From NCBI RefSeq assembly GCF_000255295.1, contig NC_017030.1, positions 5,974,328 to 6,038,327 of the forward strand: 64,000 nt of DNA, given 5' to 3'. Positions 1,393-37,371 of the stretch are shown in pieces. A program made the translations under genes and the position numbers. Position 1 is the first letter of the stretch. The number at the start of each line of letters is the position of its first letter. This DNA comes from Corallococcus coralloides DSM 2259. Its GTDB lineage: Bacteria > Myxococcota > Myxococcia > Myxococcales > Myxococcaceae. The notes under the pieces were generated by a model that saw nothing but the letters and a program-made list of their open reading frames with translations, had not been told where the DNA came from and ran no database searches.

Positions 1393-2808
1393 GTGGAGTA
1401 TGAGCAGTGCGTGCTTTTCTCCCTCTTCCGCCATCACCTGTCCGTCCTCGCCCTGGTCCTGACGGGCCTGGGGGCCTCCATGGCCCACGCCGACGAGGAC
1501 CTGCCCGTGTCCTCCTCCCTGCGCTCCGAGGTCGGAGACGTGACGGTGGAGGGCGCGAACAAGACGCAGTCCTCGACGGTGCGCTCGTTCGGACAGGTGG
1601 ACGTGGGCGACCCGGTGGACAGCGAGGAACTGGAGAAGGTGGAGCGGCGCCTGTTGGCCACGGGGCTCTTCCAGGATGTCCGTGTCAGCACCGAGCCGAT
1701 GCCCGACGGGCGCGTGCGGCTGGTGCTGCGGGTGAAGGACAAGGCGTCGTGGGTGGTGGCCCCCACGGTGGCCCTGTCCTCCGCGAACACCGGCGGCGGG
1801 CTGCTCTACGCGGAGAACAACCTGGGCGGCCGCGCGAAGAAGTTCGTCGTCGCGGCGCAGGTGAGCACCGGCGAGAGCGGCCTGTACGTGGGCTTCCTGG
1901 ATCCGATCCTCTTCGGCCTGCCGCAGCTCAAGTTCAGCCTGGAGGGGCAGCTGAAGAGCGACCGCGTGGACGAGTACAGCATGGACCCCAGCGAGGACGA
2001 CCCGGAGGTCCTCCGGCGCACGCGCTTCAACTCCGCGTCCCTCAGCGCCGAGCTGGGCTTCATCCTCTTCGAGCGCGTGCGCGCGGCGGCGAAGTACCGC
2101 CTGTCGAGCATCGACGCGAAGACTCCGGACCCGAAGATGCCGGTGACGACGCCGCCCTTCTCCACCGGCCCCGCCATGCGAGACACGTCGCTGCGCCTCA
2201 TGGTGGGCCTGGACACGCGCCAGACGCTGTACGCGGTGACGGAGGGGCTCAACCTGGAGGCCTCCTACGAGGTGTCCACCCCGGATGTGTGGAGCGAGTT
2301 CGACTACCGCAAGTTCGGCCTCCTCTACCGCCACGGCATCCGCTTCTTCGAAGAGAACAACCTGGTGCTGCGCGGAGAGCTGATCCTGGGCACGGACCTG
2401 CCCTTCCAGCAGGAGCTGGTGATGGGCGGCACCACGCTTCGCGGCTTCCAGTACCGGCAGTTCCGCGGCGACAGCCGGCTCACCTTCACGGCCGAGTACC
2501 ACTTCCCCCTCTTCAAGGTGAAGTCGCTGGCCTTCCGGGGAGTGGCCTTCTCCGACACGGGCGCCGTCGCGTGGAAGGACGTGCCCGAGGATGGGATCCT
2601 GCGCGACGCCAACGGACGCGTCATCCGCAACTACCTGCGGGAGACGATCACGGGCCAGAACCCCGTCACCGTGGCCCAGGGCGTGGGCGGGGGCCTGCGG
2701 CTGTACCTCAACAACGTCGTGCTGCCCCTGCTGGGCGTGGACGTCGCCTACGCCGTCAACTCCGGCCAGGTGCGCTTCTACCTCGTGGCCGGAGTCACGC
2801 CCTCCTGA
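1393..2808 (+). CDS. Omp85/BamA-family outer-membrane protein (bacterial surface antigen D15 family), short form
   Basis: It is in frame with ORF 877..2808. GTG starts at 1393 or 1411 precede a signal peptide (LFSLFRHHLSVLALVLTGLGASMAHA). A POTRA-like region is followed by a beta-barrel ending ...VRFYLVAGVTPS. Motifs include GGTTLRGF and the C-terminal aromatic-rich strands. Confidence 0.75.
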   Translation: MEYEQCVLFSLFRHHLSVLALVLTGLGASMAHADEDLPVSSSLRSEVGDVTVEGANKTQSSTVRSFGQVDVGDPVDSEELEKVERRLLATGLFQDVRVSTEPMPDGRVRLVLRVKDKASWVVAPTVALSSANTGGGLLYAENNLGGRAKKFVVAAQVSTGESGLYVGFLDPILFGLPQLKFSLEGQLKSDRVDEYSMDPSEDDPEVLRRTRFNSASLSAELGFILFERVRAAAKYRLSSIDAKTPDPKMPVTTPPFSTGPAMRDTSLRLMVGLDTRQTLYAVTEGLNLEASYEVSTPDVWSEFDYRKFGLLYRHGIRFFEENNLVLRGELILGTDLPFQQELVMGGTTLRGFQYRQFRGDSRLTFTAEYHFPLFKVKSLAFRGVAFSDTGAVAWKDVPEDGILRDANGRVIRNYLRETITGQNPVTVAQGVGGGLRLYLNNVVLPLLGVDVAYAVNSGQVRFYLVAGVTPS

Positions 2809-2817: not shown

Positions 2818-3780
2818 CTAGCCGGCGCGGGCAGCGCTCGCGTCCACTTCCGGCCCAGGCTCCGGAGGCAGCACCACGCCGGGCCACGCCTCCGGCGGCA
2901 GGCCCAGGCTGAACGGCGGCGACTCGCCGCGCACCGTCCACCAGAGCGCCTTGTCCGCGCACAGCGCCTGCGCGATGCGGCCGGAGGTCGTGCGGACGCG
3001 CTCCACGACGGCCTGGTGCTCCTCCGGCGTCTGCGCCTCCAGCATCGCGACCACGTTGTCCCAGACGCGCTGGCGCCAGACGATGAGCATCCGCATCACC
3101 GCCCGCTCCACCACGGGGCGGCTGAAGGGTACCCGCAAGAGCAGCCGCGTGGACGCGCACCGGTAGCGCTCCGCGAGCAGGTCCACGCACTCCGGGATGC
3201 ACGAGCGGAGGATCTCGTTCACGTGGAAGTAGTCGTGCCGGTAGCGCGCCATGCGGCGTGCATCCGCCGGCGGCGACTGGTGGGCGATGTTGTCGTAGAC
3301 GACCATTCCCAGGTCGTGGTTGATGTGGGCGCTCACACCCAGGAGCGCGTCCTGGTACGGCTGCGTGAGGCCCTGGGCCGGGTAATGCGTCGCGAAGCGC
3401 CACGCCGCGGTGGGCAGCGGCAGGTTCTTCAGCGAGTCCCGCACCGCGATGAGTGCCTCTTCCGCGAAGCGGCCCGTCAGGTGCGAAAGCCACTCGGGTT
3501 CGAGAAAGCCGCCCGCGTCCTCCCGGCTCAGCAGGTGGACGACCTTGCGCGTGACGATGGCGTAGATGTCCAGGAAGATGGCGCGTGAGTCATTGCGCGC
3601 GTTCAGCCGGGCGAGGATCTTCTCCAGCCCCTCCAACGCCTCCTCCGCGTTGACAGGATTCCAGAGCACGTCATCCAACCGGATGGGCCCCTGCGCCTCC
3701 GGGGCCTTTGTCTCGTGGAGGTGAAGCGGCTGGGGACGCTGCGACCGGTGAGCCGAGGGGGAGGCTGGTGAAACATTCAT
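2818..3780 (-). CDS. Hypothetical protein (320 aa). It is convergent with the Omp85 gene.
   Basis: A long ORF with codon usage consistent with its neighbours. I recognised no catalytic motif, and the start codon is uncertain. Confidence 0.5.
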   Translation of the reverse strand: MNVSPASPSAHRSQRPQPLHLHETKAPEAQGPIRLDDVLWNPVNAEEALEGLEKILARLNARNDSRAIFLDIYAIVTRKVVHLLSREDAGGFLEPEWLSHLTGRFAEEALIAVRDSLKNLPLPTAAWRFATHYPAQGLTQPYQDALLGVSAHINHDLGMVVYDNIAHQSPPADARRMARYRHDYFHVNEILRSCIPECVDLLAERYRCASTRLLLRVPFSRPVVERAVMRMLIVWRQRVWDNVVAMLEAQTPEEHQAVVERVRTTSGRIAQALCADKALWWTVRGESPPFSLGLPPEAWPGVVLPPEPGPEVDASAARAG

Positions 3781-3937: not shown

Positions 3938-5191
3938 TCAGGGCGCGGTGCCTTCACTCACGGTGCCGCCCGTCTTGCCCAGGACGTACTTCGCGAGCGC
4001 CAGGGCGTTGTTCTCATCGACGAGGGACTCGTAGGTGGGCATCTGCGTGCCGGGCTTGAAGGACTCCGGGTTGCGGATCCACTTGGCCACTTCCTCCGGA
4101 GCCTTGCCCTTGGCGCCCTGGAGCTTGGCCTCGTAGGCCTTGCCGGGGGCGTGGCAGGTCGCGCAGCCCAGGGAGCTGAACATCTTCTCCGGGTCGTTGG
4201 AGGGCTCCGCCTTGGGGCGGCCACCGGCGGGAGGCGGCACCACCGTGTCGTTGGGCTTCATGGAGCGCAGGAAGGTGTAGATGGCGGTGAGCTCCACGTC
4301 GTCCGCGTAGCGGTACTTGGGCATGGGCGCGCGCAGGATGTGGCCCGAGGGCGTCACGCCCGTGCGCATGGCGTGCTTGAACTCATCCAGCGTCCACTTG
4401 CCGATGCCGGCCGTCTCGCTGACGGTGATGTTGGGCGACAGCAGCTTGCCCTCGCCGCCCAGCGGCGTCATGTCGAACTCGAAGCCGCCGCTCAGCACGG
4501 TCTCCGGCTTCTGCATCTTCACCGCGCTGCCCTCGAAGCCCGGCGAGTGGCAGAAGACGCAGTCGTAGACGCTGGCGGACACGTAACGGCCGTACTCCAC
4601 GGAGTCCGCCGCCTTCGCGGGCACGGGCACCACTTCCGTGCGGCCCTTGTCGTTGATGCCCATGGCGAAGGAGAACACCATCCGGCCCATGGGGGTCAGC
4701 GTGGAGCGCGGCGGCTGGGACTTCTCCGGCGCGAAGTCCGGGTGGCCGGAGCGCATGAACCCGATGACCGCCGCCAGGTCCTTGTCACCCATGTTGGGGA
4801 ACGCGGGCATGGGGCGCACGTGGTGGTTCTTGTCGATGGAGTTGATCACCATGCGGGCGATCTCCTGGTCCGTCCAGGCGCCCACGCCCTTCTCCGGGTC
4901 GGAGGTGATGTTCGCGGAGTAGAACGTGCCCAGCTCTGGCGGGAAGTCGTGCATCTGCACGCCCGTGGGCTTGGTGTTGCCACCGCCCGCGTGACACTCC
5001 GCGCACACCGCGCGGAACACCTGCTCACCGCGGGCAATGCCCTCCGGCGAGCTGTCGCGCGTGATGTTGGGCAGGGCGACGTTCTCATACGTCTTGTTGA
5101 TCTTGTGGCTGGCCACGCCCATGGCGGTGCCCGCGCCAATCAGGACCAGGGCGACCAACGCACCAATGGCGATCAGGATCTTCTTCATCAT
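3938..5191 (-). CDS. Membrane-anchored tri-heme cytochrome c
   Basis: It starts at MMKKILIAIGALVALVLIGAG, an N-terminal transmembrane anchor. It has three CxxCH motifs: CAECH, CVFCH and CATCH. The length and the three-heme layout resemble the cytochrome subunits of membrane dehydrogenases. Confidence 0.8.
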   Translation of the reverse strand: MMKKILIAIGALVALVLIGAGTAMGVASHKINKTYENVALPNITRDSSPEGIARGEQVFRAVCAECHAGGGNTKPTGVQMHDFPPELGTFYSANITSDPEKGVGAWTDQEIARMVINSIDKNHHVRPMPAFPNMGDKDLAAVIGFMRSGHPDFAPEKSQPPRSTLTPMGRMVFSFAMGINDKGRTEVVPVPAKAADSVEYGRYVSASVYDCVFCHSPGFEGSAVKMQKPETVLSGGFEFDMTPLGGEGKLLSPNITVSETAGIGKWTLDEFKHAMRTGVTPSGHILRAPMPKYRYADDVELTAIYTFLRSMKPNDTVVPPPAGGRPKAEPSNDPEKMFSSLGCATCHAPGKAYEAKLQGAKGKAPEEVAKWIRNPESFKPGTQMPTYESLVDENNALALAKYVLGKTGGTVSEGTAP

Positions 5192-5290
5192 GGGGAACGC
5201 TTCTCCGGATGAACGGGGACGGCACACGGCGCTCCGTCTGCTCCACGGGAGGGAGTGGACGGAGCGCCGGCGTTGGGACGGGTGAGGCGG

Positions 5291-6421
5291 CTACTGGCCC
5301 GGCAGGCAGGTGCTGGGCGGGGGAATCTGGGGCGTCGTCGAGGGCGTCTTGCTGTACATCTGGAGGCCGGCGAACGTCACGCTGCCCGGGGCCACGGGAA
5401 GGTCCAGCGGCTGGAGCACCCACGGGCGCCCTTCCGGGTCGCTCGTGGTGGAGTCCTTCGCTTCGTAGTGGACCACCGGCGGCGGCCCCATCGGCGGCTG
5501 CGGCAGCGGCGGGTGGACGACGGCGACGAGGCCCAGGGAGCTGTTGGGCGCCGGAGGCCCCGGCGGGATGAAGAAGCCTCGCGTGGACTGGAACGGCGCC
5601 AGCGGCGGCGGCAGGACCCCCACGGGCGCCCACTCGATGTTCAGCACGCGGCCCGCGCTGGCCTCCACGGTGGTGTTCGCCGCCGGCACGCGGAAGACCG
5701 GGAAGCCCGGCCGGTACAGCCAGAACACCGTCACGCCGCCGAAGCGGCCCGGGTTGAGCAGGTCCGCCACCGTGGTGGGCGTGCCCTCGGTGGCGGTCAG
5801 GTACTTCGCGACCGCCTCCAGGATGCCCTTGTCGCTCATCTGCAGGGCCTCCAGGCCCACGCAGGCGCTGTGCGCGGGCACCACCGGCCGTACCGTCAGC
5901 GTGGGCACGTAGTTGCCCGCCGGCACGGGCTGCAGCGTCAACATCGGCGGCGGCAGCGGCATGATTCCGTTGTTGGGCAGCGTGCCCTGGGCCCCCCCCA
6001 GCGACAGCACGAAGAATGGTGCGCCCCGGCGCGTGGGCGCCTTGTCCAGGGTCCAGACGCCATTGGCGTCCGACGCCGTGACCACGCCGCCTTCCGCGAG
6101 CACCTGACCCGTGGCGCTGTCCAGCAGGGAGATGGGCGCGTTCTGCACCACCGCGCGCTGCAACAGCGGGCTGAACTCCGCGTACAGCGGCGGCAGCTGG
6201 CACTGCTCGGGCGTCGGCGCGCAGCCGGCCAGGTTGAAGAAGTAGGCCTCCGGGTCCACGGTGAAGCCGGTCAGCCGGGAGGTGAGGCCCTCCGGCTCGC
6301 GGGTTTCATACGTGGGGCGCGGCGTGAAGGTCGACGCCGCGGGGTTGTTGGAGGATTCCTGGCAGCCGGCGTTCAGCAGGGCCGCGCCGAGGAGCGATCC
6401 GAAGAAGAGAGCTCTTTGCAT
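5291..6421 (-). CDS. Lipoprotein of unknown function (376 aa), Pro-rich
   Basis: It has a signal peptide and a lipobox (LLNAGC). The product is proline-rich and has no heme motif. It sits between two cytochrome c genes on the same strand. Confidence 0.6.
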   Translation of the reverse strand: MQRALFFGSLLGAALLNAGCQESSNNPAASTFTPRPTYETREPEGLTSRLTGFTVDPEAYFFNLAGCAPTPEQCQLPPLYAEFSPLLQRAVVQNAPISLLDSATGQVLAEGGVVTASDANGVWTLDKAPTRRGAPFFVLSLGGAQGTLPNNGIMPLPPPMLTLQPVPAGNYVPTLTVRPVVPAHSACVGLEALQMSDKGILEAVAKYLTATEGTPTTVADLLNPGRFGGVTVFWLYRPGFPVFRVPAANTTVEASAGRVLNIEWAPVGVLPPPLAPFQSTRGFFIPPGPPAPNSSLGLVAVVHPPLPQPPMGPPPVVHYEAKDSTTSDPEGRPWVLQPLDLPVAPGSVTFAGLQMYSKTPSTTPQIPPPSTCLPGQ

Positions 6422-6436
6422 GGCGGATTGCTTCCC

Positions 6437-8368
6437 CTACTTCGCGGGGAGGATGTGGCTGGCGGGAAGCTGATCGCCGCCGTGGCAGGTCTGCGCGCAG
6501 TTGCCGAACCGGCTGGGCGTGCCGCGCTGGTTGAAGGCGATCTGGAAGAACTCATCCCCGTGCTGCGAGATGTGGCACGAGCCGCACAGCGACAGGCTGG
6601 GACGCTCCGTGCTCTTGCGCGTCAGGTGGCACACGGTGCAGTCCGCGCGGTTCGCCGGGTAGCTGGGCGAGTTCATGTGGATGCGGTGCACCATCTCCTG
6701 CGTGCGGCCCACCGTGTCCGTGTCGTAGTGGTGGCAGACCTTGCAGCTCTCGATGTGGTCCACCGACAGGCCGTGGCGCAGGTTGTCCAGGGACAGCACG
6801 CCGCGGTGGCAGATCTGGCAGTTGCCCACGTTGCCCGGGTACGTCGTCGACTCGTCCTGGCCCACCTGGAAGAAGAAGGGGTTCATCTTGGCGACGCGCT
6901 CACCCATGGCCGCGCGGTTGAACTTCACCAGCGCCACGTAGGTGCCCGGCTTCGCGTCCGGGGGCAGCGTGAACGTCTGGCGCGTGGGCCACTTGTAGTC
7001 GATGAGACCCGGCGTCAGCCCCGTAAGCGTGGCGTCATCCAGCACGGGGAACGGGAACGGCCGCGCGATGAACTGGGGCTTGTCGCTGGGGTTGCCCAGC
7101 ACCTGGAAGTCCTGGATGGGGCCGGCGATGGCCACGTTGGGGATGGAGTCGTTCTCCATCACGGTCGTGATGACATTGGGGACGAACGTCTGGATGCCGT
7201 TGGCCTGGCCGCCGATGATCTCCCGCGCGCTGGGCAAGAGGTCGCGCGAGTGCAGGTGCGCGCCCGCGCTGTCGCGCAGGTCCACGTAGACGCTCACGTC
7301 CTCGCCGGGCTTGTAGAAGCTGCCCTCCTTCGGAGGAGAGAACACCAGCCGCGAGTCCAGGCCCGGGCTGCACTGCACCGGGTTGCCCGCGTCGTCCGTG
7401 CAGGTGGACGGGCGATCATCCGGGATGACGTACGTGACGGGGAAGAAGAACGGCTTGTCCGGCAGCTGGCTCCAGGTGGCCTTGAGCGCGCCGGGACCCG
7501 ACAGGCGCGGCACGCGCAGCACCTTGAAGGGGTTGGTGCTGCCCACCCAGTCCACGCGCGCGACGGTGCGGGTGATGGCGCTCTGGTCCAGGCCGCCGGT
7601 GAAGCCCGTCACCGTGCCAGGGTCCTTGTCACCGGGGAAGCGCGGCGGCTTCAGGTTCTCCGACCGCCAGGAGAAGCGGCTGTGGCCGGCGTAGGGCGAG
7701 GAGGCCAGGAGCTCCGAGCGCAGGTACGTCTGGCTCGCGCGCGAGGTGCCCGTCTCGTCCAGCACCTCCACCGTGATGGTGTCGTCCTTCACCTTCTGCC
7801 AGTTCGCGTTGCCGAACTGCACCTCGCGGGTCCAGCAGTCCTCCACCGCGCCCGCGAGGCTGTAGAAGCTCCACTCGTCCGGGCCCTGGTTGACGTTGGT
7901 CCAGTCCAGGCCCGCGAACACGGACTGGTTCTTGATCCACGCCAGCGCGGCCGTCTGGTCGTTGGGGTTGTTGTGCTGGTTGACCACGGTCTCCGACACG
8001 GAGAACTGGTTCAGGAAGTACTGGGTGTCCGACAGGATCTGCAGCGTCCCCGTGGGAGGCGACAGCGTCAGCGGGTTCTGCCCGAGCGGCGTGATGCACA
8101 TGTCCGGGTAGTTCACCGGGACGTCGTTGTGCATCAACGGCACGCCGTTCTTCGCCACCATCTGCCCGTTGGGCAGGAAGGCGCAGCCGTTGATGTACTG
8201 GAGGCTCAGGCGGATCGCACCGGAGTTGAGGCCCTGGTACGGGTCGAACCGCTTGGCACCGCGACCCGTGGTGGACCCCTCGTCATCAGTGACCTTGAGG
8301 AGGTTGCAGGACAGCAGGGGCACCAGCAGGGCGCACCACGCGCTCTTCAGCAGGATTGAGCGGTTCAT
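6437..8368 (-). CDS. Multiheme c-type cytochrome lipoprotein (643 aa)
   Basis: It has a lipobox (LLVPLLSC). The N-terminal 480 aa carry no heme motif. The C-terminal 150 aa carry CQICH, CKVCH, CTVCH, CGSCH and a CX3CH-type motif (CAQTCH). Confidence 0.75.
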   Translation of the reverse strand: MNRSILLKSAWCALLVPLLSCNLLKVTDDEGSTTGRGAKRFDPYQGLNSGAIRLSLQYINGCAFLPNGQMVAKNGVPLMHNDVPVNYPDMCITPLGQNPLTLSPPTGTLQILSDTQYFLNQFSVSETVVNQHNNPNDQTAALAWIKNQSVFAGLDWTNVNQGPDEWSFYSLAGAVEDCWTREVQFGNANWQKVKDDTITVEVLDETGTSRASQTYLRSELLASSPYAGHSRFSWRSENLKPPRFPGDKDPGTVTGFTGGLDQSAITRTVARVDWVGSTNPFKVLRVPRLSGPGALKATWSQLPDKPFFFPVTYVIPDDRPSTCTDDAGNPVQCSPGLDSRLVFSPPKEGSFYKPGEDVSVYVDLRDSAGAHLHSRDLLPSAREIIGGQANGIQTFVPNVITTVMENDSIPNVAIAGPIQDFQVLGNPSDKPQFIARPFPFPVLDDATLTGLTPGLIDYKWPTRQTFTLPPDAKPGTYVALVKFNRAAMGERVAKMNPFFFQVGQDESTTYPGNVGNCQICHRGVLSLDNLRHGLSVDHIESCKVCHHYDTDTVGRTQEMVHRIHMNSPSYPANRADCTVCHLTRKSTERPSLSLCGSCHISQHGDEFFQIAFNQRGTPSRFGNCAQTCHGGDQLPASHILPAK

Positions 8369-8651
8369 GGAAGACGAGGCCGGGGGGAGTCAGGGGGAGG
8401 AAAGGGAGCAGGTATCCTCACGCGCGGGCCCACGCGACCCACCCTTCCCGACGCCGCCAACGCTCCGCCACGCGGAGACGGTGAGGCTTGGGAAGGGTTG
8501 GGAGGAGAACACCTCATCGGTTCAAACTGACCACATTATGAGAGTCCGCGCAATTCGTGGACCGCAGATCGCACGAGGGGAATGAGCCCCGCGGGCGGGT
8601 GACTCAGAGCGTCGGATGGGCGCGGCCAACGACAGCCCGGTTCTAGAGCCG

Positions 8652-9578
8652 TCAGAGGCTGAGGCCCGCGGACAGGAGCACGGCGAACACCAGCCCCAGC
8701 CCCGCGGTGCGCCCCAGGTGCGGATTGAGCGCGCCGCCGTCCTCCCGCCAGATGGCGCGGATCTGCACCGCCGCGAGCGGCAGGCCCACCAGCGTGAAGA
8801 GCCACGCGCGCGGATGCGCCGGAGACAGCGCCCAGGCGATGAGCGGCAGCGCGAACGCCCCGGCCACCGCGAGCGTGTACTCCCACTGGCCGAAGCGGCG
8901 GCCGAAGCGCACCACCAGCGTGCGCTTGCCGGCGAGCACGTCCGTCTCACGGTCGCGCAGGTTGTTCACCGCGAGGATGCCCGCGGCGATGAGCCCCATG
9001 GACAGGCCCGCGAGCACCACGTCGCCGGAGAGGCGATGGGTGAGCACCCCGTAGCTGCCGGTGACGCCCAGCAGGCCGGAGATGAGCAGCACCAGCAGGT
9101 CCCCCAGGCCCATGTAGCCCAGCGGCACGGGACCCGCCGAATAGAGGACGGCGCCCGCCAGACACACGGCGCCGCCCACGAGCACGGGCCACCCCCCCGC
9201 CTGCGTCAGGAGCAGCACCGAGAGCGCGGCGCCTGTGAAGGCCAGGGCCGCGGCGCCCGCCACTTCACGTGAGGTCAGCCAGCCCTTCTGCGTGACGCGT
9301 GCGGGCCCCAGCCGGGCCGCGGTGTCCGCGCCGCGCTCGAAGTCCGAGTAGTCGTTCACCAGGTTGCTGACGATCTGCGCCAGCATGAAGCCCACCAGGA
9401 AGGTCAGCGCCGGCACCGGCCGCCAGCCCCCTTCCACGTGGGCGAAGGCCCATCCCACCAGCGTCGGCGCGATGGACGCGGTGAGCGTCTTGGGACGCAG
9501 TGCGACCCACCAGATGCGGGCCAGCGAGGGCTTGGCTTCGACCGCGACACTCGACGACGGGAGACTCGGAGTGGCCAT
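8652..9578 (-). CDS. menA: 1,4-dihydroxy-2-naphthoate polyprenyltransferase (UbiA superfamily)
   Basis: It is a polytopic membrane protein with the MenA/UbiA Asp-rich motif NDYSDFERGAD, and a second motif around NNLRDRETD. Confidence 0.8.
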   Translation of the reverse strand: MATPSLPSSSVAVEAKPSLARIWWVALRPKTLTASIAPTLVGWAFAHVEGGWRPVPALTFLVGFMLAQIVSNLVNDYSDFERGADTAARLGPARVTQKGWLTSREVAGAAALAFTGAALSVLLLTQAGGWPVLVGGAVCLAGAVLYSAGPVPLGYMGLGDLLVLLISGLLGVTGSYGVLTHRLSGDVVLAGLSMGLIAAGILAVNNLRDRETDVLAGKRTLVVRFGRRFGQWEYTLAVAGAFALPLIAWALSPAHPRAWLFTLVGLPLAAVQIRAIWREDGGALNPHLGRTAGLGLVFAVLLSAGLSL

Positions 9579-22947: not shown

Positions 22948-23836
22948 GCCGGGACGGCAGGCGCACGTCCCACGCCAGCCCCAGGGCCTGGAGCGCCCGG
23001 ATGAAGAGCCAACCCGGGTCCCACTGCCACCACACCCAGCCGTGCCGAGCGGACGCGGGGAAGGCGTGGTGGTTGTTGTGCCAGCCCTCGCCCAGCGCGA
23101 GCACGCTCACCCACCACACGTTGCGGCTGAGGTCGCGCGTGTCGTGGACGCGGTGGCCGAACGCCGCGTGGCACACCGAGTTCACCGCATAGGTGCTCTG
23201 CATCCAGCACACCACGGGCAGGAAGAAGTACGCGGGCACCGTGCGCCAGCCGAAGGTCAGCCCCACGAAGAGCACCCCCAGCACCTGCGGCGCGATGCGG
23301 TAGCGCAAAAGCCAATGGTAGTAGCCGTCATCCGCCATGTCGCGGCACCAGGTGCGCCAGCCGTCCTCTTCGGTGGAGGCCTCGTTGAGGATCCACCCCA
23401 TGTGCGCGTACCAGAAGCCGCGCACCGGCGAGTGCACGTCCCCGTCCGCGTCCGCCTTCGCGTGGTGCAGCCGGTGGTTCGCGGCCCACAGGAGCGGGCT
23501 GCCCTGCGCCGTGAGCATGGCCACCGTCACCAGCGCGTACTCCACCCAGCGGGGGCACGCGAAGGCGCGGTGGCACAGGAGCCGGTGCAGCCCCACCGTC
23601 GTGCCCAGGCCAATGGACACGTACACGGCCAGCGCCACCGGCAGCGCGTACGGCGGCCAGGGCAGGAAGAACGCCAGCGCGGCCAGCCCGTGGACCACGA
23701 GCATGTAGCTGACGATGACGGGACTGAGCTGGAAGCGGAGCGGCGCGGTGATCATGGCCCGGTGCGGTGGTCGAGGAAGAAGCACGCAGTCTAGGGGCCC
23801 CGCCTGACGGGACAAGGAATGCGCCCGGCGCGTCAC
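22925..23836 (-). CDS. Acyl-CoA (stearoyl-CoA-type, delta-9) desaturase-family protein
   Basis: It has the His boxes HRLLCH, HRLHH and HNNHH and four transmembrane segments. The start is ambiguous between 23836 and 23755 (MITAPLRF). The gene overlaps or abuts the cyclase stop, and its 3' end overlaps the convergent radical SAM gene by 23 bp. Confidence 0.85.
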   Translation of the reverse strand: MTRRAHSLSRQAGPLDCVLLPRPPHRAMITAPLRFQLSPVIVSYMLVVHGLAALAFFLPWPPYALPVALAVYVSIGLGTTVGLHRLLCHRAFACPRWVEYALVTVAMLTAQGSPLLWAANHRLHHAKADADGDVHSPVRGFWYAHMGWILNEASTEEDGWRTWCRDMADDGYYHWLLRYRIAPQVLGVLFVGLTFGWRTVPAYFFLPVVCWMQSTYAVNSVCHAAFGHRVHDTRDLSRNVWWVSVLALGEGWHNNHHAFPASARHGWVWWQWDPGWLFIRALQALGLAWDVRLPSRLRSGPAA

Positions 23837-26800
23837 ATCACGCGGGCGTCACGGACCCGGGCGGCCTGGGCCGCCATGAGCGCCTCGGCCGGCGGGGCCT
23901 GGAGCGTGGCCTGGAAGCGGTCCACTCGGCGCAGCTCCGCGCGGGCCTCCACCTCCGTGAAGATGGCGCGCGCACGGGCGAGGAAGTCCTCGCGCCGGTG
24001 CGGCAGGGCCACCGCCGCGTCGAAGTAGGCCACGCCCGTCTCCCAGCGGTTGGGGCTCTTCTCCAGGACGGCGATGGCCTCCAGGAACACCGGCTCCGCG
24101 GCCTTCGGGCCCTTGCGCAGGGCCAGCGAGCGCGCCGTCACGCGCAGCGCCGGGCCCTTCAGGTACGGATAGAGCCGCGCGATGACGCGCGCCTTGATGC
24201 AGGACAGGCGGACGATCTTCAGCAGCTCCTTGCGCGGCACCACCGTGGCGCCCTCCTCCAGCGCGAAGAGGGCCGCCTCCGCCGCGTCCACCAGCCCCAC
24301 CTGGAGGAAGGGCACCAGCACCTGGTAGCTCCAGATGCTCTTGAAGCAGCGCACCGCGACGAGCGCCGCCTCCTCCACCTGGTGCTCGCGCACCGTGACG
24401 TTGGCCAGGTGGTTGAGGCTCGCGCACTGGTTGGCCAGGTCCGCCACCTCTTCGCTGATGCGCAGGCCCTGCTCCAGCTCCGCGCACAGTTCGCCCACGT
24501 CGCCTTCGCCCATGAGGTAGCGGCACATGGGCGCCCACGAGTGCGCCCAGCCCTGGTGCATCAGCGCGTTGAGCTCCACGCCAATGGTCCCCATCTGCTC
24601 GTAGAGCGCCACCGCCGTGCGGAAGCGCGAGTGGAGGAACTCGCCCGTGGCCTGCATCATCAGCGACGTCTGGCGCTCCCAGCGCTCGCCCACCTGGCGC
24701 AGCGTGGAGACGGCCTCCTCCTGGAAGGTGCGCGCGCGCTCCAGCTCGTTGGCGAAGAAGGCCTGGATGCCCAGGCGGCTGAGCGCGAGCCCCTCCGCCA
24801 CGGGGTCCTTGGAGCGGCGCGCGTACTCCAGCGCCTTCTCGCAGTGGTAGCGCGCGCGCTTGAGCAGTCCCGCGCCGAACAGGAGCGTGCCGTAGTAGCC
24901 GCGCGCCAGGCTGATGGCGTAGTCGCTGCGCGAGCGCTCCGCCATGTTGGTGGACACCAGCGTCGCCCAGGTGAGCTTGGTGATGTCCGCGAAGTAGTAG
25001 ATGCGGATGAGCGAGTTGAGCGTGGACAGCTGCTGCAGGTAGTTGCCCAGCCTCGCCGCCGGCAGCGGGCGCAGGATGAAGGGCAACAGCGACGCGAGCC
25101 CTCGCAGCAGGAGATTGGCCAGCGTGCGCAGGCCCAGCGCGGCCAGGCTCCCCGGGAGGCTGCGGCCCCTCAGCACCAGCGACTTCTCCAGGTGCTGCGT
25201 GGCGAGCGCGGACTCGCCCTTCTCCTGGTGCGCGCGGCCCAGGCCCAGGTGCAGCTCCGCCTGGCGGGGGATCTCCTCCTCGTCCACCAGGCACTGTTCG
25301 AACATCAGGATGGCGTTGGCGTAGTGGCCCGCCTGGAGGAGCGTCTCCGCCAGTTCCTGCATCACCCGGCGCGTCTGGAGCAGCGTCACCTCCGGGTCCA
25401 CCGGGACGACGGTGCCGAGCAGCTCCAGGCCCCGGTTGTAGTGGTAGAGCGCGTCGTCGTTCGCGTACTGCGCCCGCGCGCTGCGGGCCGCCATCAGCGT
25501 GTACTCCAGGCCCTTGTCCTCCACGTTGCCCGCAAGGAAGTGGAACGCGAGCAGACCCGCGGAGCCCGCGAGGTTGTCGTTGGCGCGGGCCTCCAGGTAG
25601 CGCGCGAGCCGGCGGTGCAGGTCCTCACGCGCCGACACCAGCAGCGTGTTGTAGGCCACGTCGCGGATGACGATGTGCTTGAAGAGGCAGGTGTACGGCT
25701 CCTCCGTCTCCAGCAGGATGAGGCCCAGGCGCTGCAGCGTGTCCATGGCCTCGCGCAGCACGCGGTGGCCCAGGGTGGGCACCAGCGCCGCAACGGCGTC
25801 CAGCGTGAAGATGCGCCCGATGACGGACGCCACCTTCACCACCAGCTTCTCCGTCTCGCTGAGCAGGTCGATGCGCGACAGCACCACGTCCTGGATGGAG
25901 TCCGGCAGCAGCAGGTCCTGCAGGCCGCGCTTCAGCTCCATCCGCTGCGAGCCGGGCTCCACCGGCCCCAGGTAGCCCTGCTCCGCCAGGCCCTCCACGA
26001 TGGATTCGATGAAGAACGGGTTGCCCTGCACCTTCGCGAGCAGCCGGTCCTCCAGCGCGACGTCCGGCGGCGTCAGTCGCAGGTGCACGCGCAGGAGCGC
26101 CCGCGTGTCCTCGTCGTCCAGGCTCGACAGGTCCACCGGGACGAACTCCGGCAGGTCGCGCAGCCCGCGGAGCTGGTCGCCCGGGCGCATCGTCGCCAGC
26201 ACCATGATGCGGTGCGAGCCCACGCGCAGCGCCAGGTACTGGAGCAGGTCCAGCGAGATGTAGTCCGCCCAGTGCAGGTCCTCGAAGTAGAGCAGCAGCG
26301 GCTGCGCGCGGCTGAGCTTCTCCAGGAGCTGGAAGACGATTTGAAACACCTTCTGTTGCTTGCGACGCGCGTCGATGCCCGCGGTGGCGGACGTCTCCTC
26401 CAGCGCGATGCCGAGGATGCCCGCGACCACGGGGATCCACTCCGGCCCCACGTCCTCCAGGCCTTCCAGCCCCTGCCGCAGGCGCGCGAGCTGCGCGTCG
26501 GTGTCGTCCGAGTCGTGCAGTCCGAACGCCTGGAGCAGCACCTCCTTCCAGGGGAAGAAGGGGGTGAAGGCCTCGTAGGAATAGCAGACGCCGTACAGCG
26601 CCCGGGCGCCGCCCTCCTCCGCGTCCTCCAGCACGCGCGCGCCCAGCCGCGACTTGCCGATGCCCGCCTCGCCGGACACCACGCTCACGCGGCCCTGGCC
26701 CGCGAAGGCCGCGGTGAGCGATTCGTGCAGCACGTTCAGCTCGCGGCTGCGGCCGATGATGTCGCCCCGGCCCTTGATGAAGAGGCCTCGGCGCGTCTCT

Positions 26801-28134
26801 CCCAGCAGCCGGTACACCGGCACCGAGCGGGAGACGCCCTTGAGCTTCGCGTCCTCCACGAACTCGGTGGCGAAGCCGCCCTGCTGCGAGCGCGCCTGGG
26901 TGTTGGCGCACAGGTGCACGCCGTCCTGGCGTCCGCCGTGCGTCATCAGGCGCGCGGCCATGTTCACGACCTCGCCCAGCGCGGAGTAGCCCTTGCGCGT
27001 GGGCGAGCCCATGTCCCCGCAGTAGGCGTGGCCGGTGGCGATGCCGATCTGCAGCTCATCCAGGAAGGGGAACTGCTCCCGGGCCTTGAGCAGCTTGCAG
27101 GCCAGCCGGCACGCCAGCACCTCCTTGTTCTGCTGGGCGGTGGGCGCGCCGAACAGGACGTAGAGCACGTTGCCCTTGTCCGTGAAGTCCGTCATCAGCA
27201 GCACGCCGCCGTGGTGGGCGGACTCGCGCTGGACGTATTCGTAATAGGCGTTGAGGTCGCGGGTGAAGGCGTCCGGATCCGTGTCCGCCTGCGCGTGCGT
27301 GAAGCGCACGAAGAAGCAGGTGACGTCGCGGAAGTCGCCCGCGAACTCCTGGTGCGCGGTGGTGATCTTCGTGAAGAGCACCGGGTGCAACAGCAGCGCG
27401 CACCGGCCCACCAGCTCCGCTCCGCCCGTGGGCGCGGGCAGCGGGCGCTTCACCGACTCCACCGGCGCGTCGAGCGCCAGCCGGTGGTTGCCGCCCTCGC
27501 GCGGCTCACCCTTGCGCGCGGACTCCGGCAGCGCCGCCCAGGCGCGCGGGCTGAGGACGACCTCCGACACCGTGGCCTGCTTCTCCGCGCCCACCGCCTG
27601 CGCCAGCGGCTCGCCCACGAGCGCCGGGTGCATCCACAGGCCGGTGCCGCCCATCATGATGCGGGTGGCCTCACCGAACCCGATGCCGATGCGCGACGAC
27701 ACGCCGAAGCGCTGGCCCAACAGCTCCAGCCGGGCGAAGCGCGCGAGCCTGCGCTGCACGTGCAGCGCGCACACCGCCGCTCGCTGCACGACGTCGGTGT
27801 CGGCCTCCTCGGGCGCGGCCTCGAAGCACGCGAGGATGGAGTCGCCAGCGAACTGGTAGATGTCCCCGCCGTGGTCGCGGACCACGTCGATCATCTCCGT
27901 GTAGTAGTTCGTCAGCAGGCGCTGGAGCGCGTCGATGCCGCGCGGGCCCGCGCCGCTCAGCCCCACCACGATGGGCGTGAAGCCCGCGATGTCCAGCAGC
28001 AGGATGGCGCCCCGCACCCCCTCGGCCCGGGGCAGCGCGTCCGCCTCCTGGCTCCCGAGCCGCGCGAGGATGGCCGCCGGCATGTAGGGCGCCAGCATCG
28101 CGACAGCGGGATCAATGGGCTGCGTGGAGGGCAT
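23833..28134 (-). CDS. Multidomain signalling protein: two tandem class III adenylyl/guanylyl cyclase (CHD) domains, an AAA+ (STAND-like) ATPase and a TPR superhelical C-terminal region (1433 aa)
   Basis: The first CHD domain reads GAILLLDIAGFTPIV...FAGDSILACF. The second reads FRDVTCFFVRFTHAQ...GDMGSP...GEVVNMAARLM. The Walker A motif is GEAGIGKSRL. The C-terminal 600 aa are helical repeats. There is no LuxR-type HTH at the C-terminus. Confidence 0.85.
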   Translation of the reverse strand: MPSTQPIDPAVAMLAPYMPAAILARLGSQEADALPRAEGVRGAILLLDIAGFTPIVVGLSGAGPRGIDALQRLLTNYYTEMIDVVRDHGGDIYQFAGDSILACFEAAPEEADTDVVQRAAVCALHVQRRLARFARLELLGQRFGVSSRIGIGFGEATRIMMGGTGLWMHPALVGEPLAQAVGAEKQATVSEVVLSPRAWAALPESARKGEPREGGNHRLALDAPVESVKRPLPAPTGGAELVGRCALLLHPVLFTKITTAHQEFAGDFRDVTCFFVRFTHAQADTDPDAFTRDLNAYYEYVQRESAHHGGVLLMTDFTDKGNVLYVLFGAPTAQQNKEVLACRLACKLLKAREQFPFLDELQIGIATGHAYCGDMGSPTRKGYSALGEVVNMAARLMTHGGRQDGVHLCANTQARSQQGGFATEFVEDAKLKGVSRSVPVYRLLGETRRGLFIKGRGDIIGRSRELNVLHESLTAAFAGQGRVSVVSGEAGIGKSRLGARVLEDAEEGGARALYGVCYSYEAFTPFFPWKEVLLQAFGLHDSDDTDAQLARLRQGLEGLEDVGPEWIPVVAGILGIALEETSATAGIDARRKQQKVFQIVFQLLEKLSRAQPLLLYFEDLHWADYISLDLLQYLALRVGSHRIMVLATMRPGDQLRGLRDLPEFVPVDLSSLDDEDTRALLRVHLRLTPPDVALEDRLLAKVQGNPFFIESIVEGLAEQGYLGPVEPGSQRMELKRGLQDLLLPDSIQDVVLSRIDLLSETEKLVVKVASVIGRIFTLDAVAALVPTLGHRVLREAMDTLQRLGLILLETEEPYTCLFKHIVIRDVAYNTLLVSAREDLHRRLARYLEARANDNLAGSAGLLAFHFLAGNVEDKGLEYTLMAARSARAQYANDDALYHYNRGLELLGTVVPVDPEVTLLQTRRVMQELAETLLQAGHYANAILMFEQCLVDEEEIPRQAELHLGLGRAHQEKGESALATQHLEKSLVLRGRSLPGSLAALGLRTLANLLLRGLASLLPFILRPLPAARLGNYLQQLSTLNSLIRIYYFADITKLTWATLVSTNMAERSRSDYAISLARGYYGTLLFGAGLLKRARYHCEKALEYARRSKDPVAEGLALSRLGIQAFFANELERARTFQEEAVSTLRQVGERWERQTSLMMQATGEFLHSRFRTAVALYEQMGTIGVELNALMHQGWAHSWAPMCRYLMGEGDVGELCAELEQGLRISEEVADLANQCASLNHLANVTVREHQVEEAALVAVRCFKSIWSYQVLVPFLQVGLVDAAEAALFALEEGATVVPRKELLKIVRLSCIKARVIARLYPYLKGPALRVTARSLALRKGPKAAEPVFLEAIAVLEKSPNRWETGVAYFDAAVALPHRREDFLARARAIFTEVEARAELRRVDRFQATLQAPPAEALMAAQAARVRDARVM

Positions 28135-28152
28135 CCGTCAGGGGCTTTCCGC

Positions 28153-28554
28153 TCAGGACAGGCTGGCGTAGCGCAGGTACAGGGCGCCCAGGCACATGGC
28201 GCCGTAGAGGGGGATTTCCGCCGTCTCCGTCCAGGGCTGCTGCTTCTTCAGCGCGCCCCAGATGTGCACCGCCGTCATCAGGCCGCCAATGAGCCCGATG
28301 AGCTCGAAGATGACCAGGTGGCTCTTGGGGTCCGGGATGAACTGCACCACCGCGATGATGACGGACAGCGCCAGGCCGCCCAGGCAGCGCGCGAAGTAGA
28401 CCGTCAAGTCGTTGTTGCCCGTGGGCAGCTCCCACCCGAACCAACGCGCCCAGCGCAGCGGGATGAACATCAACGGCAGTGCGTAGACGACCAGGAAGAC
28501 CGAGGTGGAGACCGCGAGGAACCAGCTGGCCAGCGGATAGTCGGGGTTGATCAT
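28153..28554 (-). CDS. Small hydrophobic membrane protein (133 aa, about 4 transmembrane segments)
   Basis: The ATG at 28554 was verified. The product (MINPDYPLASWFLAVSTSVFLVVYALPLMF...) lies 18 bp upstream of the cyclase gene on the same strand. Confidence 0.5.
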   Translation of the reverse strand: MINPDYPLASWFLAVSTSVFLVVYALPLMFIPLRWARWFGWELPTGNNDLTVYFARCLGGLALSVIIAVVQFIPDPKSHLVIFELIGLIGGLMTAVHIWGALKKQQPWTETAEIPLYGAMCLGALYLRYASLS

Positions 28555-28688
28555 GATGGCGGACGTGATGGGTGACGGACGTGCACCCGCGGCGCACACC
28601 CCTCCCCACGCCGTCCATCCTAGAATCTTTTGCCACCCCGTGGGGCGGCTTCCCCCCCGCCAAGGCCCTGCTTGAGCCCGCCTGCCGC

Positions 28689-29219
28689 CTAGCGGGTGGC
28701 GGCCAGGAGGAACTCGGCCACCCGCTCCAGGGAGGTGGTGCGCTCGGCCTCCGCCGGGAAGCGCCGGAACACCTCCAGTGGCCCGTGGAGGATGAGCGGC
28801 TTGCCATAGCGCAAGGCCAGGACGGCCTCCGCGGCGGTGCCGGCGCCCCCGGGCAGCGCGACCAGCGCATGCGGCGTCAGCACGTTGATGTGGTTGCGGC
28901 TCATGGGGTCCGTGCCCTGCTCCCCGCTGAGCGGCAGGTGCGTGTAGATGGGGATTTCGATGTCCGTGTTCGGGTAGCCGGGCCGGGGCTGGTAGCGGCC
29001 ATCCGCGCCCACGGTGCCGGGGATGATGCCGATGGCCGCCCCCCGCCGCCCCTCCACCTGGACGAAGGCGCCCGCCGCCGCGCTCATGGCGCCGCCGCCC
29101 GCGCCGGTGAGCAGGTCGAACCCGGCCTCCGCGATCCACCGCGCCAGGGGGACGACCCACTCTTCGTGAGAGTGCGCCCCGGAGCCGAACACTCCGATGA
29201 TGCGGCGGTGTCTGCGCAT
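28689..29219 (-). CDS. LOG-family (TIGR00725-like) Rossmann-fold nucleotide-binding protein
   Basis: It has IGVFGSG near the N-terminus, then GAGGGAMSAAAGA and a PGGAGT motif. This is the lysine-decarboxylase-like/LOG fold. Confidence 0.75.
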   Translation of the reverse strand: MRRHRRIIGVFGSGAHSHEEWVVPLARWIAEAGFDLLTGAGGGAMSAAAGAFVQVEGRRGAAIGIIPGTVGADGRYQPRPGYPNTDIEIPIYTHLPLSGEQGTDPMSRNHINVLTPHALVALPGGAGTAAEAVLALRYGKPLILHGPLEVFRRFPAEAERTTSLERVAEFLLAATR

Positions 29220-29461
29220 GACTGCGTCCTCCCCGAAAAACTGGAACTACGTGAGCCCCTGTTCCATGCGAATCCCCGGCCAACGCCGCAAGGGCTCACG
29301 GACCGGCGTGCGTCCTGATTCCCGTCCACCCGTGGAAGGTGCGCGGCGCGAGCGTCGGCCAGCCGTCGCTTCCCTCCTCCCGGAGCGCCAGACGTTCCCG
29401 CACGACCCGTGATGTCGGACCCCTCCTCTACCTTCCTCGCAGGTGAGCAAGGAGGCTGCCC

Positions 29462-29767
29462 ATGTTCGACGCCTGTGGAGGTTGTGAGCGCCGTGGCACC
29501 GCCGGAGAGGTGTTCGACTGGTGCGCGCACTGCGAATTGTCCCTGTGCCCCGGCTGCCTCCAGCGCGGCTGCTGCGGCAGCGTGCCCGCGGACTCCGGGC
29601 GGGGCGCCCCCAGGGAGCTGCCCGACCCGCCACCTCCCGAGCGGGAGGCCCTGCCGGAGGACTTCGGGGGCCGCTGCTGCACGCGCGCCCGCGCGGTGGC
29701 GTGCTCCTGCGCCTTCCACTGGGTCTGCACGCGCCACGGCGACCTGCACGTGGGCACCCACGACTGA
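29462..29767 (+). CDS. Small Cys-rich protein (101 aa, about 15 Cys), a possible zinc-ribbon protein
   Basis: CxxC-type spacing is visible in CGGCERRG...CAHCELSLCPGCLQRGCCG. There is a competing off-frame ORF at the same locus. The call is weak. Confidence 0.3.
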   Translation: MFDACGGCERRGTAGEVFDWCAHCELSLCPGCLQRGCCGSVPADSGRGAPRELPDPPPPEREALPEDFGGRCCTRARAVACSCAFHWVCTRHGDLHVGTHD

Positions 29768-33300: not shown

Positions 33301-33671
33301 ACCAGGCGGACCAGCCGCAGCCGGTCCTCCTTGCAGAAGCGGCACGTGTACGGCGCCAGCAGCGAGAGCACGCGCGCGACGCCCGCGAAGCCCTCCACCA
33401 TGTTGAGCTGATCCACCACCACCGGCGGCGCGTTGACGACGTACAGCCCCGACACGCCCTGCGGCGGGTGGCCGGCGAACTCAATCCACCGGCGCACACC
33501 GAAGGAGCTGATCCGCTCCACCAGGCCCAGGTCCACCACCACCAGGCCCTGGATGCCCTTGGAGGCCGGTGAGAGGGGGAAGGTTTCGTCGATCACCCCG
33601 GCCACGCGCACGTGGGTCAGACTGCCCACGCGCAGGGAGGTGATGCTGGCATTGGAAGTTTGGCTCTCCAC
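30321..33671 (-). CDS. Hanks-type Ser/Thr protein kinase (1116 aa). Domain order: tandem STAS-like domains each followed by a C4 zinc ribbon, the kinase domain, a Pro-rich linker, a transmembrane helix, and a C-terminal periplasmic beta domain.
   Basis: Kinase motifs present are GQGGMAEVFLAK (Gly loop), VMK, HRDVSPHNVLV, DFGIA and SPE. The N-terminal region reads ...ITSLRVGSLTHVRVAGVIDETF...CRFC...CPVC, and again ...ITFITLASTLKADLNV...CDCRNC...CPVC. The transmembrane helix is LIVGGVGLVLAGLALVFLL. Confidence 0.9.
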   Translation of the reverse strand: MESQTSNASITSLRVGSLTHVRVAGVIDETFPLSPASKGIQGLVVVDLGLVERISSFGVRRWIEFAGHPPQGVSGLYVVNAPPVVVDQLNMVEGFAGVARVLSLLAPYTCRFCKEDRLRLVRLVEEAKVLEQGGAPPHQCPVCAQPLEFADEPTEFFDFARRQQFSAVDPAVLRYLRSGIPSEPSELASHLKIVQDDITFITLASTLKADLNVRRLASGLEGRVAFDCCHVSVVEQEALPRIEQVLEVASQGAQVVLCRVPPPLLAVLAKSTKALPAKLATLWLPCDCRNCGQVTHQRIQTSEYLEVLRAKGTMERVCPVCGGSARAPALAQFQGLLARTPLTDKPLEDIEALEQRALSQYLFGSTNQDPGARGSSATDTHNNSARLQIIRRLGQGGMAEVFLAKQQGVKGFEKFVVMKKILAQFAENPEFVDMLFAEARANARLTHPNVVQTFDVGVTDGVAYILMEYVRGPDLKRLLTELRRKGMALPLEHALRIVAEVAAGLHYAHSYVDPSGTAHPVVHRDVSPHNVLVSLDGAIKLSDFGIAKVQGEEHTQAGVIKGKISYLSPEAASGRPLDWRNDVFALGVVLFELLTGQLPFRRDHDAATLAAIVREPAPVPSQLRPHIPQDVSDLILRALVKDPARRTPSAAAMREEIEAVIAHHRLSSSPASVAQFFKEALGDRLSEYAPSSIAGSGTGSNPRALMPGTGSHSRNPGTGSGSDMRAPSDLSRPPVRGGSGSMPRMEPPPVASPPEPAERGTEVVSVNSPPVAPPVAAAPPVAPPVAAPRPSRPAAASPTSPLPPPTAVRPAASANVPTRVGPPPQAPARPSVSVPSVAPLTAAPPPPPVSAVPPPPQHGGTHAQYGAAHAPQGSAPQQPPLGSHASPTTGTHAAYGGHPPAPMSAPPPPPVTAPVAPPARPPAAPVAAPPAPVHAVSSAASAPAAEATGKGITPGQRKGLIVGGVGLVLAGLALVFLLPKGGVEVRNAQEGERVYVSGVRLDASQGLPEGTSGWLISTAVDGKLHRFGKVPKSEHIDLRTLADAPPQADARGTLSVTGAQGCRVALGSQVLEGQTPLSSQMPAGREFEVRVTCGGKPDVVRWVMAVPGQGVALDVP

Positions 33672-33675
33672 CCGC

Positions 33676-34518: not shown

Positions 34519-34526
34519 ACAGGGCC

Positions 34527-37151: not shown

Positions 37152-37371
37152 GAGGGGGAAGCAGGGATGTCCGCGGTCGTTGCGCCAGGAACCAGTGCCG
37201 GTGTGGCTGGCAATCGTTCTCAGGGACGAGTTTCCACCCCTGAACGGTGGCGTTCCGCTCGACTTCTCAAATTACCGCAATAACTCGCCTTAGGCCAAGT
37301 CATGGCTGTCGATCGCGGTGAAACACACGCACGGTGGCTGGGCGCCGTGCGCGGATCAACTCACGCCGCAA

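Follow-up and report, generated by a model that had tools for sequence, protein, structure and literature searches.

A five-haem lipoprotein related to MtrC and its haem-free partner form a conserved myxobacterial gene pair with a possible quinone link in Corallococcus coralloides

Nearly all knowledge of multihaem cytochromes of the extracellular type comes from anaerobic bacteria that reduce metals and from iron oxidisers. In Shewanella, OmcA, MtrC, MtrF, and UndA carry 10 or 11 haems in two five-haem domains (II and IV) that are combined with two beta-barrel domains (I and III). The Shewanella CymA-MtrCAB pathway depends on menaquinone. The locus described here lies in a 64-kb stretch of DNA (the window; ~69% G+C) from the myxobacterium Corallococcus coralloides DSM 2259 and encodes COCOR_04735, a lipoprotein of 643 residues with five haem sites in a single module. 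It is followed by genes for a haem-free lipoprotein (COCOR_04734) and a tri-haem cytochrome c (COCOR_04733), and the menaquinone biosynthesis gene menA lies upstream. The conserved unit is the pair of lipoproteins, not the set of three genes. We tentatively propose, as a reading that falls a little short of probable, that the region encodes a membrane-tethered periplasmic or outer-membrane electron relay connecting the quinone pool, the tri-haem cytochrome, the five-haem lipoprotein with its haem-free partner, and a substrate in the periplasm or at the cell surface.

The four genes are transcribed in the order menA, COCOR_04735, COCOR_04734, COCOR_04733, separated by gaps of 283, 15, and 99 bp:

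9578 to 8652, minus strand: menA, 1,4-dihydroxy-2-naphthoate polyprenyltransferase, 308 aa
8369 to 8651, minus strand: intergenic stretch between menA and the gene for the 643-aa lipoprotein, 283 bp
8368 to 6437, minus strand: COCOR_04735 (AFE05996.1), 643-aa lipoprotein, exact sequence match
6421 to 5291, minus strand: COCOR_04734, 376-aa Pro-rich haem-free lipoprotein, 100% identity
5191 to 3938, minus strand: COCOR_04733, 417-aa tri-haem class-I cytochrome c, identical to AFE07984.1 ('putative cytochrome c')

The complete reading frame of COCOR_04733 spans 5227 to 3938, and the deposited start is the MMKK codon at 5191, which gives 417 aa. A preliminary description made from the letters alone had placed all four genes, including menA on the same strand, at these coordinates. 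Its haem motif counts were exact (four CxxCH and one CX3CH in the 643-aa protein, three CxxCH in the tri-haem protein), and its gene order is the reverse of the order of transcription. Seven of the 12 CxxCH motifs found in all six frames of the window fall in these two cytochrome genes. Among Corallococcus orthologues, dN/dS is 0.29 for the 643-aa gene, 0.55 for the 376-aa gene, 0.32 for the tri-haem gene, and 0.31 for menA. Thus, all four are real genes under purifying selection, with the 376-aa gene evolving fastest. The 283-bp gap upstream of COCOR_04735 possibly holds a promoter of the cassette's own. No sigma-70-like or terminator-like site and no Rfam match was found in the gap, and a promoter, terminator, and Rfam scan of window positions 2.7-10.7 kb gave nothing useful.

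All five haem motifs of COCOR_04735 (CQICH517, CKVCH542, CTVCH577, CGSCH595, and CAQTCH624) lie within residues 517-629, and residues 1-516 contain none:

6440 to 6841, minus strand: five-haem domain, residues ~510-643
6820-6806, 6745-6731, 6640-6626, and 6586-6572, minus strand: the four CxxCH motifs
6499-6482, minus strand: the CAQTCH motif

Across 61 homologues of the protein, three of the motifs are invariant and the other two at least 90% conserved. Five candidate distal histidines (H532, H561, H564, H603, and H638) are likewise conserved in at least 90%. Five motifs matched by five conserved distal histidines imply that the domain binds five haems with predicted bis-His coordination. The terminal CX3CH is a hallmark of the family and is retained even at 27-35% identity, and throughout the family the motifs number five, with none outside this one domain. 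The lipobox (LLSC21) is also a family trait, its C21 being at least 90% conserved. The 73 word-indexed homologues found in 5.8 billion clusters are all unnamed.

The preliminary description named no characterised homologue for any of the three cassette proteins while noting a likeness to extracellular electron conduits. The likeness is borne out for the haem domain of the large lipoprotein, which is related to MtrC, MtrF, OmcA, and UndA, and both the 643-aa and the tri-haem protein do have recognisable characterised relatives. PF22113, which represents MtrC/MtrF domains II and IV, matches 59 of the 61 family members at E <= 0.01 (best 3.2e-8). Searched against the PDB, a profile of the family finds MtrC (E 0.006) and MtrF (E 0.016). 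The same profile gave 313 matches at E <= 0.001 among 1.84 billion representatives; 10-haem lipoproteins are matched at E ~1e-10 to 1e-14, and these in turn match TIGR03507 (OmcA/MtrC) at E 1e-35 to 1e-52. The five-haem domain is colinear with domain II of MtrC and MtrF, with which it shares four CxxCH motifs, an 'HG' histidine, and a 'VHxxH' pair. COCOR_04735 itself stays under the curated cut-offs (22.5 bits against 30 for PF22113; 13.7 bits against 209.3 for TIGR03507) and does not fit the ten-haem, four-domain definition, and is therefore a relative rather than a member of the MtrC/OmcA family. We read it as a single-module relative of MtrC, OmcA, and UndA, made of a beta and a five-haem domain, with extra Ig/macroglobulin-like domains.

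Behind the lipidated Cys21, an AlphaFold model of COCOR_04735 built with 61 sequences (pLDDT 84.6, pTM 0.84) shows a disordered tether (residues ~22-45), followed by three beta-rich domains (~50-505) and a helical haem domain at the C-terminus. Among the matches listed with this model, OmcA ranks third (7.3, 247 aligned), MtrC seventh (7.0, 236 aligned), and a fragment of MtrC domains I-II twelfth (6.8, 177 aligned). A Foldseek search of the model against the PDB returned only generic Ig-like multi-domain proteins at TM ~0.12. MG2 is matched by seven of the 61 family members. The N-terminal region is haem-free, as had been noted; it consists of generic Ig/macroglobulin-like beta domains, for which the substrate- or surface-binding role suggested earlier would be plausible. 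Two cysteine pairs in these domains, 62/91 and 323/333 (nt ~8185/8098 and ~7402/7372), are at least 90% conserved, and one of them is a CX9C. In the MtrC family, a conserved CX8-type disulphide in a beta-barrel domain gates flavin binding.

COCOR_04734 begins 15 bp past the stop codon of the 643-aa gene. It contains 15.2% Pro, a lipobox (NAGC20), and no haem motif. Its model (pLDDT 81) shows transthyretin/CnaB-like sandwiches; a structural search with it gave no informative match, and sequence-family searches found no family. The three cysteines other than the lipid-bearing one (C67, C187, and C372) are invariant in its own family. One genome per species was scanned, which yielded 49 loci, all from Myxococcaceae, Archangiaceae, and related metagenome-assembled genomes (MAGs); locus genes were called on the basis of G+C at third codon positions (GC3) and their products clustered. 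By these gene calls, 49 of 53 copies of the 643-family gene have a 376-family gene directly 3' in the same orientation; the gap has a median of 15 bp, and in six cases the genes overlap by 4 bp. With tblastn, the 376 family is present beside the 643 family in 50 of 52 loci. The pair is found in Corallococcus, Myxococcus, Archangium, Hyalangium, Vitiosangium, Pyxidicoccus, and Citreicoccus, as well as in MAGs. The third cytochrome can be exchanged, and the trio put forward earlier as a co-occurring unit thus gives way to the pair. COCOR_04734 probably binds COCOR_04735 as an adaptor, an anchor, or a substrate-binding partner.

COCOR_04733 consists of three class-I haem domains with matches to PF13442 and PF00034. 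Its motifs are CAECH63, CVFCH211, and CATCH343, followed by methionines in 'MP' at residues 128, 290, and 384:

5005-4991, 4561-4547, and 4165-4151, minus strand: the three haem motifs of COCOR_04733

The best relatives in the PDB are the beta subunit of glucose dehydrogenase (8hdd_B, E 5e-20), the cytochrome subunit of fructose dehydrogenase (7w2j_C, 5e-18), and the cytochrome subunit of a quinone-dependent alcohol dehydrogenase (8gy2_B, 1e-16). Homology to these subunits extends over ~310 residues and covers all three domains. Such dehydrogenase cytochrome subunits hand electrons to membrane quinone. The earlier suggestion that the tri-haem protein is quinol-linked agrees with its membership in this family of quinone-coupled membrane cytochrome subunits (E 5e-20 to 1e-16). 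A quinol peroxidase was considered and rejected, the CCP_MauG match being only noise (E 0.041). The N-terminus, described earlier as a TM anchor, holds a hydrophobic segment of 23 residues without a lipobox, which could stay as an uncleaved anchor or be removed as a signal peptide. In the clade linked to men genes, the pair adjoins orthologues 400-418 aa long that likewise have three CxxCH motifs and a hydrophobic N-terminus. At 25 of 52 loci, a member of the tri-haem family adjoins the pair, and whether it lies upstream or downstream depends on the clade. No gene for a catalytic dehydrogenase, with pyrroloquinoline quinone (PQQ) or FAD, was found near COCOR_04733 or at the related loci, where the neighbours are the pair, DUF5995, Omp85, and menA/menF.

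The partner that accompanies the pair differs between clades. In Corallococcus, the 417-aa tri-haem cytochrome lies downstream of the pair, and in a Hyalangium-like sister group, a tri-haem orthologue of 382-404 aa (~42% identity) lies upstream. Upstream of the pair in the Myxococcus clade (MXAN_1610-1613) are both a Rieske/VanA-type oxygenase, which is translationally coupled, and a di-haem lipoprotein cytochrome of 324-330 aa. The Archangium loci have only the Rieske oxygenase gene upstream. In a deep clade, a CCP/MauG di-haem lipoprotein and a TonB-dependent receptor stand beside the pair, and other loci have unrelated di-haem proteins. These contexts fall in coherent clades of a neighbour-joining (NJ) tree of the 643-aa family. 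In nearly every clade some c-type cytochrome, whether tri-haem, di-haem lipoprotein, CCP/MauG, or another di-haem protein, adjoins the pair, and this variety fits an electron-transfer hub with exchangeable partners.

The oxygenase of the Myxococcus and Archangium loci has no signal peptide, belongs to the Rieske/VanA_C type, and is co-transcribed with the pair, overlapping the next gene by 4 bp (L031 7899-12987, M. xanthus). A cytoplasmic oxygenase sharing an operon with exported lipoproteins is an odd combination. The MXAN_1610-1613 set also adjoins genes for a non-ribosomal peptide synthetase (NRPS) and TldD/PmbA.

The identity of menA is clear (TIGR00751, 172.6 bits against a cut-off of 102.15; PF01040 UbiA, E 2.9e-28), and it is the sole men gene in the window. 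It adjoins the cassette in all orthologous Corallococcus loci, a direct adjacency peculiar to this genus. Hyalangium versicolor has the cassette embedded in an entire men cluster next to shikimate genes, in the order menF, cytochrome, 643, 350, menD, menH, menA, menC, menE. Other loci of the men-linked clade have menF downstream or menA divergent upstream. Linkage to menF, menD, or menA thus takes four arrangements, all in one part of the tree. The adjacency of menA noted in the preliminary description holds for Corallococcus; as a functional link it carries little weight, since linkage to men genes is confined to one clade and is explicable by inherited synteny. We downgraded menA as evidence of a dedicated quinone link: it is the lone men gene of the window, the Hyalangium-type loci have the cassette within a full men cluster, and the men-linked loci form one part of the tree. 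A quinone link of the cassette is plausible mainly from the homology of the tri-haem protein, not from menA.

In the relay that we propose, the core would be COCOR_04735, a five-haem protein with all haems bis-His, borne by three beta-rich domains and a flexible tether to the lipid. COCOR_04734, a lipoprotein of three predicted beta-sandwiches co-translated with it, is probably bound to it in a physical complex. COCOR_04733, as a membrane-anchored tri-haem cytochrome with His/Met ligands, would plug the relay into the respiratory chain in Corallococcus. With menaquinone as the presumed quinone partner, the tri-haem cytochrome would exchange electrons with the menaquinol/menaquinone pool on one side and with the five-haem lipoprotein on the other. 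A periplasmic or surface-located redox substrate could be either the end or the starting point of the relay. Where paralogous pairs are found, the surrounding genes hint at chemistry involving iron or peroxide. In M. xanthus, Lys at position +2 retains lipoproteins in the inner membrane and Ala at +7 is a signal for the matrix (PMC3222651). Both lipoproteins of the pair lack +2 Lys and +7 Ala, so sorting to the outer membrane is the default expectation.

Several points weigh against this proposal. Those relatives of the tri-haem protein that have been characterised are anchored at the C-terminus and work with ubiquinone. His/Met class-I haems usually have a higher potential than bis-His multihaem domains and menaquinone, so a flow from menaquinol through the tri-haem protein to the five-haem protein would be partly uphill; reverse flow or delivery to terminal oxidases is equally possible. 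Linkage to men genes is explained equally well by ancestral insertion of the cassette in a men cluster followed by passive decay. Several clades lack an adjacent cytochrome partner, as in Archangium, where only the cytoplasmic Rieske oxygenase lies upstream. No gene of the MtrA/MtrB type, no other multihaem gene (>2 CxxCH), and no porin gene occurs within 10 kb in the 52 loci, and the locus thus offers no evident path across the outer membrane. Of the electron-transfer module suggested in the preliminary description, the set of c-type cytochromes stands, whereas the trio does not hold as a unit and the outer conduit, with no porin-cytochrome of the MtrA/MtrB type beside it, is not supported. 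In the literature searched, no paper was found that names MXAN_1610-1613, COCOR_04733, or COCOR_04735, and no description of myxobacterial MtrC-like cytochromes. The M. xanthus cytochrome c TfcP is reported to have been repurposed for a non-redox role (PMC8833165).

TonB-dependent receptors provide a second context for the pair. The pair lies directly beside such a receptor and a CCP/MauG di-haem lipoprotein in L001, L033, L037, L041, L043, and L045 (locus numbers of the scan), and also in L015. Every receptor beside a pair in these seven loci has one CxxCH at the same alignment column, within (S/T)VGNCGRCH(Y/F)T, and the HmuY-linked receptor in the L001 locus has none. A homologue of these receptors is also encoded in the window:

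34527 to 37151, minus strand: receptor homologue of the window, 874 aa, plug and barrel, CGRCH at ~residue 475
L001 11924-14062, L015 3060-5690, L033 204-2318, and L037 8310-10484: other receptors with CxxCH
L041 7871-9979, L043 1-1311, L045 7935-9974, and L056 4021-6132: further receptors with CxxCH

CGRCH is retained in all 120 matches listed, which are 58-95% identical to the window receptor. The closest solved relatives of these receptors are the catecholate and haem receptors Cir, PhuR, and ShuA. No description of TonB receptors with haem motifs was found in the literature searched. The window receptor belongs to a six-gene operon (30321 to 42622, minus strand) that has the same order in Myxococcus sp. 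Y35 and Archangium minus (L054 and L055). Its first half encodes a HAMP/Cache-SpoIIE phosphatase (601 aa), a TPR protein (841 aa), and a phosphonate-binding-like periplasmic protein (308 aa), and its second half comprises the receptor, an uncharacterised protein of 280 aa, and a 1116-aa Ser/Thr kinase. The operon looks like an outer-membrane-to-cytoplasm signalling system. In the complete genomes of Myxococcus sp. Y35 and Archangium minus, the core receptor orthologue is megabases from the pair. The 26 kb between receptor and pair in the window was considered as a functional link and set aside; it probably reflects synteny, only paralogous receptors truly adjoining pairs.

This context underlies a different reading, which we consider rather unlikely, in which the pair serves metal or haem acquisition. 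The pair would be an accessory of TonB-dependent uptake exposed to the surface or periplasm, and the five-haem protein a reductase of ferric iron or another metal that prepares the substrate for import, supplied in Corallococcus with quinol electrons through the tri-haem cytochrome. The deepest clade, with its receptor and CCP/MauG lipoprotein beside the pair, points this way, as do HmuY and a second receptor in L001. A distant five-haem family member (35% identity) is likewise followed after 9 bp by a TonB-dependent receptor, in this case with two CxxCH motifs. The conserved motif of the receptors and their kinship with Cir, PhuR, and ShuA are further points in favour. However, neither the clade of the window nor that of Myxococcus and Archangium has a receptor adjoining the pair, the core receptor orthologue sits in a distant signalling operon, and genes related to siderophores or Fur were not identified beside the cassette. 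If the CGRCH receptors carry haem c, they are candidate conduit partners. A bolder reading, speculative and very unlikely in our estimate, would make five-haem lipoproteins the surface partners of TonB-receptor-like barrels with haem c at the invariant GNCGRCH. Together they would form a new outer-membrane conduit of aerobic myxobacteria, an alternative to MtrAB and Cyc2, of which the tri-haem/menA cassette of Corallococcus would be the menaquinol-wired form.

Electrons could also run inwards. The five-haem protein might oxidise an external or periplasmic reductant, such as Fe(II), reduced humics or phenazines, or compounds from prey, and pass electrons through the tri-haem protein to terminal oxidases, or, in the clades linked to CCP, to peroxide through the di-haem peroxidase, with the quinone pool not involved. 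By general haem chemistry, the order from low-potential bis-His to His/Met haems would be downhill. CCP/MauG partners occur in four loci, Cytochrome_CBB3-type class-I domains are typical oxidase donors, and one distant relative lies beside a candidate fused porin-cytochrome and a YceI-like gene. Uptake or detoxification of this kind is nevertheless unlikely, given that the tri-haem protein has its closest characterised kin among quinone-coupled subunits, that the cassette adjoins men genes in one clade, and that no oxidase genes are adjacent. We regard it as quite unlikely that the co-location has no function. In that case the tri-haem protein would work for a dehydrogenase or for the respiratory chain in general, menA would be a neighbour with a housekeeping task, and the pair would be structural or non-redox like TfcP. 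Many loci indeed have another third gene or none, synteny can account for the men linkage, and M. xanthus provides the non-redox precedent (PMC8833165). Against this, cytochromes of the same cluster adjoin the pair in 25 of 52 loci despite rearrangements and in several gene orders, which also disfavours the scenario named in the preliminary description as its refutation, a tri-haem subunit of a dehydrogenase encoded elsewhere. Moreover, five haem sites and five distal histidines kept under purifying selection over deep divergence are not expected of a purely structural protein.

Other features of the neighbourhood are recorded here. Of the entries below, the first two are genes downstream of the cassette, whose adjacency to it is kept only within Corallococcus:

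1393 to 2808, plus strand: 471-aa Omp85/POTRA outer-membrane protein
2818 to 3780, minus strand: DUF5995 protein
23833 to 29767: block of genes for c30 (85 aa, Cys-rich), a SLOG protein, a 133-aa membrane protein, and a 1433-aa cyclase-AAA-TPR protein

The last block directly follows the 643/376 pair in several relatives (L013, L015, L016, L020, and L021) and lies 15-20 kb from it in the Corallococcus window, and the different distances indicate that the pair was displaced within a conserved neighbourhood. On a metagenomic contig (L052 6205-9572), a three-haem relative 27% identical to the 643-aa protein has a YceI-like (polyisoprenoid-binding) protein upstream. Between them lies a gene for a 378-aa protein with a signal peptide, one N-terminal CLSCH, and a strand-rich remainder. 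It has no family match and is a candidate for a fused porin-cytochrome like Cyc2. L045 6645-7814 encodes a similar protein of 389 aa, in which the N-terminal motif is CNACH. For the more distant members of the 643-aa family, the contigs were mostly short or uninformative.

A strictly paired single-module relative of extracellular cytochromes in aerobic predatory soil myxobacteria has both evolutionary and physiological bearing. The unit of beta domain and five-haem domain could resemble the unduplicated ancestor of the decahaem proteins of the MtrC type. For these myxobacteria, iron minerals, humics, peroxide, or prey might serve as partners in electron exchange. The paralogous set MXAN_1610-1613 makes the question genetically testable in M. 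xanthus. Should the TonB-dependent receptors with CxxCH prove to be haem proteins, they would constitute a new class of redox protein in the outer membrane.

In their gene arrangement, the paralogous clades resemble TbpB-TbpA, HmuY-HmuR, and SusD-SusC, in which a lipoprotein is also encoded beside a TonB-dependent receptor. There is no relation in sequence or fold to TbpB, HmuY, or SusD; here the lipoprotein is multihaem and the receptors carry CxxCH, and the cassette of the window has no adjacent receptor. With the tri-haem subunits of dehydrogenases (8gy2_B, 8hdd_B, and 7w2j_C), COCOR_04733 shares three class-I domains with CxxCH and Met and a membrane association. Unlike them, its putative hydrophobic anchor is N-terminal rather than C-terminal, no genes for catalytic or small subunits lie nearby, and its partner is a lipoprotein pair. 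The host quinone is presumably menaquinone, as we expect for myxobacteria, and not ubiquinone. COCOR_04735 has the lipoprotein signal of the OmcA/MtrC family and a five-haem domain homologous to domains II and IV. It differs in its terminal CX3CH, in its extra Ig/macroglobulin-like N-terminal domains, in its obligate haem-free lipoprotein partner, and in the absence of mtrA and mtrB neighbours, and the hosts of its family are aerobic predatory Myxococcota. Compared with CymA-MtrCAB, the locus lacks a NapC/NirT-type tetrahaem protein, a periplasmic decahaem protein, and a 26-strand porin, and only the five-haem domain is homologous. The proposed logic is nevertheless the same, in that a membrane-anchored, quinol-linked cytochrome would feed a multihaem lipoprotein of the outer membrane.

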